This document shows, in pieces, positions 37,778-45,735 of a stretch of DNA of 64,000 nucleotides. The translations under genes were made by a program, and so were the position numbers. The DNA comes from a virus (taxonomy: Duplodnaviria; Heunggongvirae; Uroviricota; Caudoviricetes), in IMG/VR virus record IMGVR_UViG_2609459826_000002; one strand, given 5' to 3'. The notes beneath the pieces are model-generated. The model saw only the letters and a list, made by a program, of their open reading frames with translations. It did no database searches and had not been told where the DNA came from. The first letter of the stretch is position 1. The number at the start of each line of letters is the position of its first letter.

Positions 37778-38272
37778 CTATAATCCAACGACCTCATCCC
37801 CGATATTAGTCAAAATCATTAATTCTTTAATCTCTCGTTGTGCCAACTGTAATTCAAACTGCTCTTGAATTAACATCCACTTCGACCAACTTCCACCGAC
37901 TACATGCGATAATCGGAGTGCCATAGCTTTCGTCAGTGAAACTGAACCGTTCAACAATTCAACTATCTCTTGCTCGCGACATCCCATGTAAACCGAAAAT
38001 TTATTCAGTCCTATATTTGATACCGCTAGTATTTCGGCCAGTTTAATGCCGGGATGATCAGGAAGTAAGGTCATGCCGTATTCATCCTGATAAATTCCAT
38101 AAATAGAACAGCCAGTTTCTCTCAGTTCTCGTAAATTCTTCCCTGCAAACTTCAGCTCGTGTGAAAGCCCGAGAAACTCACCAGTAAATTCATATTCTGC
38201 TTCAGGCCTATGGTGGCATTTGATCAATGCAAATGCCGCCCCTACTTTCTCAACTGTTACAGTAACCGACAT
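37778..38272 (-). CDS. HigA-family HTH protein with ~65-aa N-terminal extension
   Basis: C-terminal HPGIKLAEILAVSNIGLNKFSVYMGCREQEIVELLNGSVSLTKAMALRLSHVVGGSWSKWMLIQEQFEL matches HigA/XRE antitoxin pattern; 34 bp downstream of hsdR. Confidence 0.6.
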   Translation of the reverse strand: MSVTVTVEKVGAAFALIKCHHRPEAEYEFTGEFLGLSHELKFAGKNLRELRETGCSIYGIYQDEYGMTLLPDHPGIKLAEILAVSNIGLNKFSVYMGCREQEIVELLNGSVSLTKAMALRLSHVVGGSWSKWMLIQEQFELQLAQREIKELMILTNIGDEVVGL

Positions 38273-38306
38273 TGAACCACCTCCGTCAAGATAATCGATG
38301 AACGTT

Positions 38307-42625: not shown

Positions 42626-44036
42626 TTTCCGCCTCGCTTACCGCCTGCTCGGCTTCCGGCAGGGTGATTTCACCGGAGAGGAGTTTGGGGAGAAGGGTGT
42701 CTCGGATATTTTTTAATAACACCGTTTGTTTTTTACGCTGAACTACCCCGTTGATTATGGTTTTACAATGATCTTCAAATTTTTTTACTAGTTTAAAATC
42801 AGGTGCTACTAACTCAATATTTTTCAGATGAGATGATGGCCTGGCAATAGAAGGAACACCTACTTGCGAGGCGTTTGATAATAATAGATGTTGTCCTGTC
42901 CGCGATCTAAAGAAATATAGCAAATAATAAGGAGATATTAGTTTTTTGTCTGCACGCAAAAAGAACTGTCGCTGAGATATAACATAACGTTCATATTCTG
43001 AAAATTCAGGAATGATTGAAACCTGCCCTATACTCCCTGCATGCGTAAAAATGATATCTTCGCTAAATACATTTGAGCTTTTCAATTTATCGGCATGTTC
43101 GAGTGTAATAAAATTATTCTCACCATCATTAAGAATAGATTCTTTTAAATGCTGCCCACTAATTATAGGAATACCTTCATCAACAAAGGTGGATACCTTA
43201 ATATTTGAACCAAATGGCCCCATTCCAATTTTACTAGTCAATTCTTCAGTTTTAACAACCGCCCATCCCTTTGGAATATCCCTCCCCTCGCTCTCCTGCA
43301 TCGCCGATGGAAACAGCTCTGCTGTGGCTTTTAATTGAGCATATTGCTCAGGGTGTTCACGCTCAAAAACCACCAACGCATCAGAATCTTTCCCGGAAAT
43401 CGCTGTCATAGCGGCAAGCATCGCGTCTTCCTGCGAACCGCCCGCTTCCAGTGCTGTGATTTTGGCTTTTACCGGTTCAAAATCGACAAACCAGCTTTTG
43501 AACAGGGCTTGCGCCATTTGTTCGAGAGTATGGTTGATTTGATGATTTAATAAAATTTTATCGTCGAATTTCTTTAAAACATCACCTGCAAATTTCCTTA
43601 ATCTTTTGTCAGGGAAATCATATTCATAATCGGCTAATGATTGCCATGCAACGCGTTGACGTCCAGAAGTTCCTTCCATTCTGGATCGAGCAAATGAACG
43701 GAATTCCCCAAGGCGTGAGAGATAATAAATATAATCACTATCGTACTCAGGCTCTTTTGCAGCTAAAACGATAAATTCCGTTGAACCAAAAGCAACCTCA
43801 CCATCCGATAAACCGGAAACAAGCGATGTTTTACCATTTTCAAGACAAGGTGTTATACGAGCAAACAAGGTGTCTTTATTTGCAAATTTTGAACCGCCAC
43901 CGGTGAAGATTTTTTCATCAACTCTATTTATATCTCTACCATTTTCGGGAAGTGCGGCCATTTCAACAAAGGCTGCACTTTCTCCTTTTTTTAGTGGGCG
44001 CTTTGGATTAAAAATAACCAAATCAGATAATTTCAT
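42618..44036 (-). CDS. hsdS: Type I restriction-modification specificity subunit
   Basis: 472-aa ORF with two target-recognition regions separated by conserved spacer; 14-bp overlap with hsdM. Confidence 0.9.
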   Translation of the reverse strand: MKLSDLVIFNPKRPLKKGESAAFVEMAALPENGRDINRVDEKIFTGGGSKFANKDTLFARITPCLENGKTSLVSGLSDGEVAFGSTEFIVLAAKEPEYDSDYIYYLSRLGEFRSFARSRMEGTSGRQRVAWQSLADYEYDFPDKRLRKFAGDVLKKFDDKILLNHQINHTLEQMAQALFKSWFVDFEPVKAKITALEAGGSQEDAMLAAMTAISGKDSDALVVFEREHPEQYAQLKATAELFPSAMQESEGRDIPKGWAVVKTEELTSKIGMGPFGSNIKVSTFVDEGIPIISGQHLKESILNDGENNFITLEHADKLKSSNVFSEDIIFTHAGSIGQVSIIPEFSEYERYVISQRQFFLRADKKLISPYYLLYFFRSRTGQHLLLSNASQVGVPSIARPSSHLKNIELVAPDFKLVKKFEDHCKTIINGVVQRKKQTVLLKNIRDTLLPKLLSGEITLPEAEQAVSEAENV

Positions 44037-45735
44037 AACCCAGCCCCCCCAGATTCGCCTTAATCTGTGCTTCCAGGTTCGCGCTCTCTTCCAACTGATC
44101 TTTCAGTTGCGCCGTCAGTCGTGCCATCTTCTCGGCAAAGGGCTCATCATCTTCGTCCTGCTCGGCAGCACCGACATAGCGACCTGGGGTCAGGACAAAG
44201 TCATTTTTCTTTATATCTTCCAGCGTTGCGGCGAAGCAGAATCCCGCTTCATCTTCATAGTCTTTATCCGTCTGCCATGAATGGAAGGTGTCGGCAATTC
44301 TGGCGATATCTTCACGGCTAAAATCACGCAACACGCGATCTTTCATATAACCAATCTGGCGCGCGTCTATAAACAGTACTTCACCTTTACGGTGTGCTTT
44401 GCCGTTGCCACCAGATTTATCTTTGGTCAGAAACCAGATGCAGGCCGGGATTTGGGTGTTGGTAAACAGTTGCCCTGGCAGCGCCACCATACATTCCACC
44501 AGATCCGCTTCAATCAGGTTGCGGCGGATTTCGCCTTCATTGTTGGTGTTGGAACTCATTGAGCCGTTCGCCAGCAGCAGAGCCATCGAACCTTTTGGCG
44601 CGAGGTGGTGGATCATGTGCTGCATCCACGCAAAGTTGGCGTTGCCCTGCGGCGGCGTACCATATTTCCAGCGCACGTCGTTTTCCAGCTTCGCGTTCCA
44701 CCACTCCTTCATGTTGAACGGCGGGGTTGCCATCACGAAGTCGGCACGCAGATCCGGGTGCTGGTCGTCCAGCAGGGTATCGGCGTTTTTGCTGCCGAAG
44801 TTAAAGTCGATACCCCGGATCGCCATATTCATCGCCGCCAGCTTCCAGGTGGTCGGGTTGGACTCTTGGCCGTAAACGGAGATATTGCGCTTCTGCTCGG
44901 CGGCGTTGTACTGCTTCTCGCCCGCGTGCTCTTCGATAAAACGGTCGCTGGAAACAAAGAACCCGCCGGAACCCATCGCCGGGTCATACACGCGCCCGTT
45001 ATACGGTTGCAGCATTTCAACAATCAGGGTGACGATACTTTTTGGCGTGTAATACTGGCCGCCCTGCTTACCTTCCGCCAGCGCGAACTGACCGAGGAAA
45101 TATTCGTACACGTGACCGAGAATATCTTTGCTCTTTAAGTTGAGCTTCTCGCCGTTATATTCCGGGTTGCTGAAGTTGGCGTCAGAGAAAGTATTAATCA
45201 GCCCGGTCAACACTTCGTTGCCCAATTGATACTGGCTGATACGGTTCAGAATACCTTTCAGCTTCGGGTTGGTTTTTTCGATTTCATCGAGCGCGTTATC
45301 CACCAGCCAGGACACAGAGCGCAGCGTCACATCCTTGCCGGTGGTTTCATCCACCCACAGCACGGTGCCGGTCGGCAACATGGCTTTGTTTTTCAGCGTG
45401 TCCCAGCGCGCGGCTTTCGGCACCCAGAAGATGTTCTTTTCGGTGTAGTAATCTTCCACCTCCAGTTCATCCACAATCGCCTGTGCGTACTCTTCATCAG
45501 AGTCGTAACCGTCGCGCGACATGGCATAGATGTTGTCCGGGTTGCCGACATCGCGGAACAAGGTGATTAGCTCCTGCTGACGCGCCTCGAAGGCATCGGA
45601 CACATACTTGAGGAAGATAAGCCCCAGCACCACGTGCTTGTAGTTGGCGGCATCCATGTTGGCGCGTAGCTTGTCGGCGGCTTTCCAGAATTTGTTATCC
45701 AGCTCGTTCAGGAACTGTTGTTCGGCGTTGTTCAT
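44023..45735 (-). CDS. hsdM: Type I restriction-modification methyltransferase subunit
   Basis: Start taken at MNNAEQQF with GAGGA RBS; NPPF motif (MATPPFNMKEW) and SAM-binding motif. Confidence 0.9.
   Translation of the reverse strand: MNNAEQQFLNELDNKFWKAADKLRANMDAANYKHVVLGLIFLKYVSDAFEARQQELITLFRDVGNPDNIYAMSRDGYDSDEEYAQAIVDELEVEDYYTEKNIFWVPKAARWDTLKNKAMLPTGTVLWVDETTGKDVTLRSVSWLVDNALDEIEKTNPKLKGILNRISQYQLGNEVLTGLINTFSDANFSNPEYNGEKLNLKSKDILGHVYEYFLGQFALAEGKQGGQYYTPKSIVTLIVEMLQPYNGRVYDPAMGSGGFFVSSDRFIEEHAGEKQYNAAEQKRNISVYGQESNPTTWKLAAMNMAIRGIDFNFGSKNADTLLDDQHPDLRADFVMATPPFNMKEWWNAKLENDVRWKYGTPPQGNANFAWMQHMIHHLAPKGSMALLLANGSMSSNTNNEGEIRRNLIEADLVECMVALPGQLFTNTQIPACIWFLTKDKSGGNGKAHRKGEVLFIDARQIGYMKDRVLRDFSREDIARIADTFHSWQTDKDYEDEAGFCFAATLEDIKKNDFVLTPGRYVGAAEQDEDDEPFAEKMARLTAQLKDQLEESANLEAQIKANLGGLGYEII

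Follow-up and report, generated by a model that had tools for sequence, protein, structure and literature searches.

In the prr locus, the genes of a Type I restriction-modification (R-M) enzyme are arranged as hsdM-hsdS-X-hsdR, X being prrC. In the PrrC protein, an ABC-ATPase-like domain is joined to a tRNA(Lys) anticodon nuclease domain; EcoprrI keeps this protein silent, T4 Stp activates it, and a review describes prrC as embedded in the Type IC ecoprrI locus. The site between hsdS and hsdR, which has been called a likely hot spot for defence genes, is occupied by DarTG2 in enteropathogenic Escherichia coli (EPEC) (PMC12255303). In Vibrio cholerae, TgvAB lies within the Type I operon of Vibrio pathogenicity island 2 (VPI-2) and is a GmrSD-family Type IV system that is independent of, and complementary to, the Type I enzyme (PMC11411939). 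Here, we analyze an operon with the order hsdM-hsdS-orf395-hsdR, found in a 64,000-nucleotide (nt) stretch of the Caudoviricetes record IMGVR_UViG_2609459826_000002 (hereafter the window), and focus on orf395, the gene in the slot, which encodes a 395-amino acid (aa) protein. An earlier note on this DNA had regarded the slot as a hotspot for R-M-linked backup immunity, and the systems above show it to harbour defence genes; it had also described orf395 as uncharacterised, although the protein belongs to a recognised family.

The closest described system is MdgA (modification defense gene A; Cell Host Microbe 2025, PMC12366544; bioRxiv 10.1101/2025.02.28.640651), a single polypeptide in which NucS and DUF4268 domains are combined. 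MdgA originates from a human faecal metagenomic insert, of which the lone gene suffices for protection: by itself it blocks T4 but not T4-GT7, and it also protects against Mu (PMC12366544). In its purified form, MdgA degrades DNA of T4 much more effectively than that of T4-GT7, it cuts DNA containing glucosylated hydroxymethylcytosine (glucosyl-hmC), and an E77A substitution abolishes its activity (PMC12366544). Its authors propose that DUF4268 is the substrate-recognition module, and report that MdgA homologues are common across many phyla (PMC12366544). DUF4268 is also found fused to GmrSD Type IV enzymes.

Our analysis assigns orf395 to the same NucS_C + DUF4268 family, named PDC-S11 in PADLOC, of which MdgA is a member shown to act as a single-gene antiphage DNase. 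With a probability that we put at about 0.7, orf395 is a Type IV-like DNA endonuclease, autonomous and dependent on modification, whose action complements that of the Type I enzyme. Its C-terminal DUF4268 domain would recognise a feature of hypermodified phage DNA, and its N-terminal NucS/RecB-like PD-(D/E)XK site (D67, E81, K83, Q94 and Y98) would cut the modified DNA. As orf395 would be co-transcribed, and translationally coupled, with hsdM-hsdS-hsdR, a single operon could deal with two classes of invader: unmodified DNA without the host methylation pattern would be attacked by the Type I enzyme, and phages whose base modifications evade that enzyme by orf395. This two-class coverage is proposed because orf395 would be co-expressed with the Type I enzyme. 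If correct, the operon would be a compact two-layer restriction unit, in which a Type I enzyme is paired with an MdgA-type nuclease. As a kind of system it is not new: the DUF4268/PDC-S11 family, the activity of MdgA, and the presence of defence genes (PrrC, DarTG2, TgvAB) between hsdS and hsdR are all published. What seems to be unreported, in the searchable literature on DUF4268 and PDC-S11, is that a whole clade of the NucS + DUF4268 family resides in the hsdS-hsdR slot, coupled to hsdS.

Domains, active site and family of orf395

The gene orf395 spans positions 41438..42625 on the minus strand. The C-terminal domain of its product, which the earlier note had left unrecognised, is Pfam DUF4268 (PF14088). 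The whole profile is covered by residues 234-369 (41519..41926, minus strand), with an E value of 2.3e-36 and a score of 125 bits against a cut-off of 27. All eight PADLOC profiles for PDC-S11 match orf395, the best of them (PDLC04913) over residues 1-379 of 395 with an E value of 2.5e-174, and the E. coli orthologues are annotated in RefSeq as "DUF4268 domain-containing protein". PDC-S11 itself is a bioinformatic single-gene phage-defence candidate without a mechanism, for which the literature gives genome presence or, in a haloarchaeal preprint, a correlation with virus susceptibility. A viral DUF4268 protein is tagged 'counter defense against TA' (toxin-antitoxin) in a haloarchaeal virus preprint, at odds with the nuclease role of MdgA, and the annotation of DUF4268 is thus inconsistent among papers.

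The conserved part of the protein is the N-terminal nuclease module (residues ~1-205; 42011..42625, minus strand), within which residues 50-127 give a sub-threshold match to Pfam PDDEXK_4. In an alignment of 78 family members sharing 29-96% identity, E26, D67, K83, Q94 and Y98 are invariant, and E55, D72, E81 and D85 are conserved in at least 90% of the sequences. The stretch D67 ... E81-N-K83 ... Q94-x-x-x-Y98 (42332..42427, minus strand) would constitute the active site; judging by this conservation, its D...ExK...QxxxY pattern is the signature of RecB/NucS-type PD-(D/E)XK nucleases. Pfam NucS_C is reached individually by 50 of the 78 sequences. The family profile aligns with residues 159-193 of Pyrococcus abyssi NucS, i.e. 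its D-ExK-QxxxY stretch, so that D67, E81, K83, Q94 and Y98 register with the NucS segment holding the D-ExK core. An AlphaFold2 (AF2) model built from the 78 diverse sequences has a predicted local distance difference test (pLDDT) score of 91.7 and displays a PD-(D/E)XK fold; it supersedes a first, mediocre model (pLDDT 72) that was built from 25 close homologues. The candidate D...ExK signature and nuclease fold proposed in the earlier note are thereby upheld. Searches of PDB chain sequences with orf395 alone gave no match, and a first shallow profile returned only noise.

In the predicted model, the nuclease domain folds like that of NucS/EndoMS (PDB 2vld and 5gke), with which it also shares the D-ExK-QxxxY motifs. 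The two proteins differ in their overall architecture and setting. NucS/EndoMS, which functions in mismatch repair, binds DNA through an N-terminal domain and ends in a PCNA/beta-clamp-binding tail, whereas in orf395 the nuclease is N-terminal and is followed by a long linker helix and DUF4268, and the gene is found in defence islands. The absence of a Walker A/P-loop, also claimed previously, is in keeping with the lack of any match to P-loop or ATPase families in Pfam, NCBIfam and PADLOC. Neither DUF262 (ParB-like NTPase) nor DUF1524 (HNH) was identified in orf395 by Pfam, which sets it apart from GmrSD-type enzymes; the accessory DUF4268 of some GmrSD proteins is the only element in common. 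END nucleases (PMC12191111), which are similar in concept as modification sensors, were considered and rejected, because they combine an inactive EndoIII domain with a Type IIS-like nuclease and form a different family.

The family is a large one. Among 8000 scored candidates, the matches amount to at least 6793 clusters at 90% identity, and at 50% identity the family comprises 4550 representative clusters (E values ≤1e-3). Many distant relatives, encoded in viral or prophage contigs (L130-L163), match only residues ~6-222 of orf395 and have different C-terminal regions; the nuclease module of the family thus appears, from these alignments, to have been combined with alternative C-terminal domains.

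To place MdgA in this family, we used the residues encoded by its mutagenesis primers. The E77A primer encodes VIV(A)NKLDD, which corresponds to V78-I-I-E81-N-K-L-D-D in orf395, and the primer deleting the start codon encodes YKVNIP, which corresponds to Y2-K-V-D-M-P7. Over these residues, the two proteins have a similar N terminus and a common V-I-[IV]-E-N-K-L-D-D motif, the Glu of which is E77 in MdgA and E81 in orf395. A catalytic Glu at position 77 is found in 74 of 117 representative family members, and orf395 has a 4-residue longer loop ahead of its catalytic Glu. On the strength of these matches we assign MdgA and orf395 to one family with high confidence, and both belong to a group spread over many phyla. 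They differ in context, because mdgA is a lone gene whereas orf395 is translationally coupled within a Type I R-M operon. An exact scan of Joint Genome Institute (JGI) metagenome contigs for the 27-nt E77 region of mdgA gave no match, and no protein identical to MdgA was present among 270 homologues. Eight matches to the 19-nt start primer, obtained by scanning metagenome DNA, were all rejected as due to chance, having no tblastn similarity to orf395.

The hsdM-hsdS-orf395-hsdR operon and its relatives

All five open reading frames (ORFs) of the locus lie on the minus strand of the window, at the positions and with the overlaps given in the earlier note. The first gene, hsdM (44023..45735), encodes the 570-aa methyltransferase subunit, with Pfam HsdM_N and N6_Mtase domains (E 5.6e-114), a match to PADLOC MTase_I and a very close solved homologue in PDB 3khk (E 1e-277). 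Its start was set at the ATG at 45735, after RefSeq homologues of 569-570 aa, although the ORF can be extended to 45774. The specificity subunit of 472 aa is encoded by hsdS (42618..44036; Pfam Methylase_S; PADLOC Specificity_I, E 7.7e-100). Downstream of orf395, hsdR (38307..41438) encodes the 1043-aa restriction/translocase subunit (TIGR00348, E 9.8e-191; Pfam HSDR_N, SWI2_SNF2, T1R_D3-like and T1RH-like_C), and it is followed by a helix-turn-helix (HTH) gene of 164 codons (37778..38272). HsdM, HsdS and HsdR are complete as assessed by Pfam, NCBIfam and PADLOC, and their ORFs are uninterrupted. The N6_Mtase domain of HsdM, the two target-recognition domains (TRDs) of HsdS, and the nuclease, superfamily 2 (SF2) motor and C-terminal domain of HsdR identify a Type I enzyme. 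Type IC membership, which would have strengthened the analogy with PrrC, was rejected because HsdR is only distantly related to HsdR of EcoR124I (E 1e-28).

The genes of the operon overlap. By their coordinates, hsdM and hsdS share 14 nt. As read from the sequence, hsdS and orf395 have ATGTATAA in common, an 8-nt overlap; hsdS ends in ...GAAAATGTATAA, within which the ATG of orf395 is found. At its other end (...GCCTGATG), orf395 has TGATG in common with hsdR, the ATG of hsdR and the stop codon sharing one base. This coupling on both sides makes orf395 an integral member of the operon, as the earlier note had held. Between hsdR and the HTH gene lie 34 nt that include a GGAGG Shine-Dalgarno sequence. 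Promoter- and terminator-like sites within the operon do not exceed the number expected by chance from shuffled sequence. The G+C content is ~52-54% in hsdM, orf395 and hsdR, and ~41-42% in hsdS. Low G+C is typical for target-recognition domains, and the TRD regions of hsdS vary among otherwise near-identical E. coli operons.

The region was matched in 153 of 5426 complete E. coli genomes, over at least 80% of its length in 29 of them, and the R-M block sits in integrase-bearing islands at ssrA or tRNA-Sec. Beyond E. coli, relatives of orf395 are encoded in at least 479 of ~100,000 species-representative genomes. The best 80 of these relatives (48-92% identity) were used to define cross-species loci, of which 62 have at least 3 kb of left and 5 kb of right flank and were sorted by context. 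Type I genes were detected by phmmer, using the Hsd proteins of the window and two other Type I sets as seeds, and a relative was counted as being in the slot when hsdM/hsdS and hsdR were on its strand, no more than 2 kb upstream and 4 kb downstream of it, respectively. In 47 of the 62 well-flanked loci, the relative lies between hsdM/S and hsdR; another seven show a partial or other hsd arrangement, and the remaining eight have no hsd gene. A check for conservation of the slot in other genomes, which the earlier note had called for, thus comes out in favor of a recurrent position. The hosts include Enterobacterales, Marinobacter, Haliea, Pseudomonas, alphaproteobacterial metagenome-assembled genomes (MAGs), Kiritimatiellae, a Spirochaeta MAG and Desulfobacteraceae. 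Where an adjacent hsdS was detected (38 loci), the identical 8-nt overlap with its stop codon is present in 25, and this overlap is kept across Gammaproteobacteria and beyond.

Some loci contain additional slot cargo, which is varied and lies between the DUF4268 gene and hsdR rather than between the DUF4268 gene and hsdS. As assigned by eye or from precomputed Pfam matches only (L034-L088, L003 and L110), this cargo comprises RhuM/Fic-like and AlbA_2/HATPase-like genes, GmrSD-like, i.e. TgvAB-like, pairs (L077 and L086), a DarT/DarG-like pair (L047), an OLD-like ATPase with a partner (L061) and Abi-like proteins. Placement in the hsdS-hsdR slot can help to annotate defence islands and to predict which hosts therapeutic phages with modified DNA can infect, and the slot is a place to seek new defence genes.

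Relatives also exist away from the slot. On E. coli plasmids, a 62%-identical homologue stands by itself close to the IncFII replicon, and a Providencia homologue lies 3' of an hsdR-M-S cluster, from which an intergenic space separates it, and is followed by a SIR2 gene. No hsd remnants were detected by tblastn at the stand-alone loci, nor was a conserved partner gene found in them. Next to the distant relatives in viral/prophage contigs (≤47% identity), mostly no adjoining hsd genes were detectable with the seeds used. For one homologue (P0116), no contig placement was found.

Conversely, the operon exists without orf395. E. coli LHM10-1 and one other genome lack orf395 but share the HTH gene and have hsdM and hsdR genes that are nearly identical. 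The hsdS of LHM10-1 is a different allele from that of the window, and its 3' end (...AGCGAGGAAGCCTGATG) equals the hsdS of the window through AGCGAGG, followed by the last 10 nt of orf395 and the start of hsdR (window 41436-41449 and 42618-42640; L001 7735-7760). Judged by its make-up, this junction is what an exact loss or gain of the cassette via a short GAGG repeat leaves behind. The slot also displays allelic variation: on one hsdR/HTH backbone, the DUF4268 allele has either 395 or 391 aa (L093-L100). Over the first 100 residues, the 395-aa allele is 83-92% identical to 391-393-aa relatives. For the 391-aa homologue P0094, identity to orf395 is ~92% in these first 100 residues and drops to ~41% in the DUF4268 domain, a pattern suggestive of an exchange of the presumed sensor domain that generates diversity.

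Autonomous nuclease or partner of the Type I enzyme

Several lines of evidence favor orf395 being autonomous. Stand-alone homologues, the sufficiency of MdgA and the existence of the operon without orf395 together indicate that it most likely does not depend on the Hsd proteins. The much faster divergence of the C-terminal domain relative to the nuclease part is what would be expected if, as presumed, this domain is the sensor. If orf395 indeed cuts modified DNA, the arrangement would resemble that of TgvAB, with modification-dependent restriction encoded within a Type I R-M operon, two systems complementing each other, and the embedded system also occurring outside Type I clusters. However, TgvAB consists of two proteins with DUF262/DUF1524 domains (ParB-like + HNH), whereas orf395 is a single PD-(D/E)XK protein, and TgvAB-like pairs accompany orf395 relatives in some loci.

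A number of observations weigh against an autonomous, modification-dependent nuclease. The link to MdgA consists of domain architecture and 15 primer-encoded residues, rather than a full-length comparison. Because DUF4268 alleles are strongly divergent, the allele of orf395, and hence the type of modification that it may recognise, could differ from that of MdgA. The role of DUF4268 as a binder of modified DNA is itself putative, and its fold neighbours are protein-binding, chaperone-like folds, none of which is a known reader of modified bases. A GmrSD-like pair that shares the slot with an orf395 relative would be partly redundant with it. Finally, autonomy does not explain the very stable position 3' of hsdS with its conserved 8-nt overlap, and this position, together with the addition of other cargo downstream, would be compatible with a functional link to the Type I enzyme.

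Such a link could take the form of a PrrC-like guard, in which a latent nuclease is held by HsdMS(R) and freed when a phage anti-restriction protein (Ocr, Stp or ArdA-like) disables the Type I enzyme, thereby providing backup or abortive immunity. This is close to the R-M-gated effector suggested in the earlier note. The likeness to PrrC is real in gene order, similar protein size and an association of defence with a Type I system, and the recurrent slot position, the conserved overlap and the exclusion of further cargo from the interval next to hsdS would all fit. Indeed, a fixed place after hsdS is more constant than hitch-hiking requires. But orf395 has neither the ATPase nor the anticodon nuclease domain of PrrC; it has a PD-(D/E)XK site of the DNA-nuclease type, its relatives work or occur alone, and the HsdR encoded next to it is not of the Type IC kind. 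Intact copies stand alone on plasmids and chromosomes, MdgA acts by itself both in vivo and in vitro, and the operon is viable and intact without orf395. No positive evidence for gating emerged, control of toxicity finds no support and the backing for a guard is positional, which is why we regard it as rather unlikely.

In a broader form of the same idea, the orf395 clade would now depend functionally on the Type I system: it could encode a nuclease that HsdS/HsdM recruit, license or restrain, a PD-(D/E)XK analogue of the PrrC guard, or a partner of HsdR that degrades the DNA which HsdR pulls in. Autonomy, as preserved in the stand-alone relatives, would in that case be the ancestral condition, and the attachment of the gene to the 3' end of hsdS by a conserved 8-nt overlap across distant bacteria, with all other cargo downstream, would be accounted for. 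We give this broader form only a minor chance, and a functional tie to the Type I enzyme, an outside prospect at present, would be considerably more interesting if true.

Alternatively, orf395 could be a defence nuclease with another trigger, such as a phage protein or a DNA structure, or one that acts by abortive cleavage of self DNA. The putative status of the DUF4268 role and the protein-binding character of its fold neighbours would be compatible with this, and strong divergence of alleles could mirror arms races at the protein level. However, purified MdgA tells T4 DNA from T4-GT7 DNA in vitro, and DUF4268 is recurrently fused to GmrSD Type IV enzymes, both of which make a trigger other than modified DNA improbable.

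Least probable of all, and by our estimate very improbable, is an accessory nuclease of the Type I enzyme without sensing of its own, which would process DNA after HsdR translocation or cleavage or modulate restriction (self-protection, restriction alleviation): the tight translational coupling at both ends of orf395, its hsdM- and hsdR-like G+C content and a long-term co-residence with one HsdR family would suit it, but Type I enzymes need no such factor, the operon occurs without orf395, homologues stand alone, MdgA is sufficient by itself, and a fast-diverging C terminus fits a phage-facing sensor, not a partner of a conserved HsdR.

The HTH gene and the surrounding island

The earlier note had described the gene 34 nt after hsdR as HigA-like with an extra N-terminal part, and this description stands. 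The C-terminal half of the HTH protein matches TIGR02607 with an E value of 8.9e-12 and a score of 44.7 bits, under the curated cut-off of 47.7, and residues 69-150 match HigA-like proteins in the PDB with E values from 3.8e-8 (3cec) to 2.6e-4; the first ~70 residues remain unassigned, with no match. There is no small adjacent ORF that could encode a HigB/RelE-type partner, since the neighbours are hsdR upstream and a divergent YagK/YfjJ gene downstream. RptR (PMC12255303) was rejected as the identity of this gene on anatomical grounds, as RptR has 79 aa and is encoded upstream of hsdM.

That the HTH gene might neutralise orf395, as was also suggested, is unlikely. An identical HTH protein is extremely common and follows the 1043-aa HsdR in 8/8 places examined, with or without orf395. 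In orf395-positive E. coli, the gene has been cut to 94 codons by IS5 in one strain and replaced by IS5 in another, and a homologue is present in one of the 80 cross-species loci and absent from 79. Because the HTH gene accompanies hsdR in enterobacteria regardless of orf395 and is truncated or absent in some orf395-positive strains, it would not be an orf395-specific antidote.

Upstream of hsdM, the native region comprises ~268 nt of intergenic sequence and a 3' remnant of a GNAT gene (45736..46081, minus strand), over which blastn alignments with two E. coli loci (L001 and L002) run uninterrupted to 46081. A solitary 41-nt IS1 end (46081-46121) follows and is separated by a 7-nt spacer from a complete 768-bp IS1 (46129-46896; insA/insB, 46184-46881). 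This IS1 junction truncates the GNAT gene that is found upstream of hsdM in E. coli relatives, and joins the island to raffinose-type genes encoding a LacI-family regulator (47049-48059) and an alpha-galactosidase (48153-50279).

On the left of the operon (26600-37704), there are two tandem tyrosine integrase genes (32215-33378 and 33543-34931), a UCP007319-family gene (35857-36621) and the YagK/YfjJ gene ('inovirus Gp2'; 37084-37704). Further left, this region also contains prophage-type regulators, a CII-like protein (27894-28463) and an S24 repressor (28786-29460). Considering these integrases and prophage-type regulators, the R-M block would be cargo of an integrative island beside a prophage.

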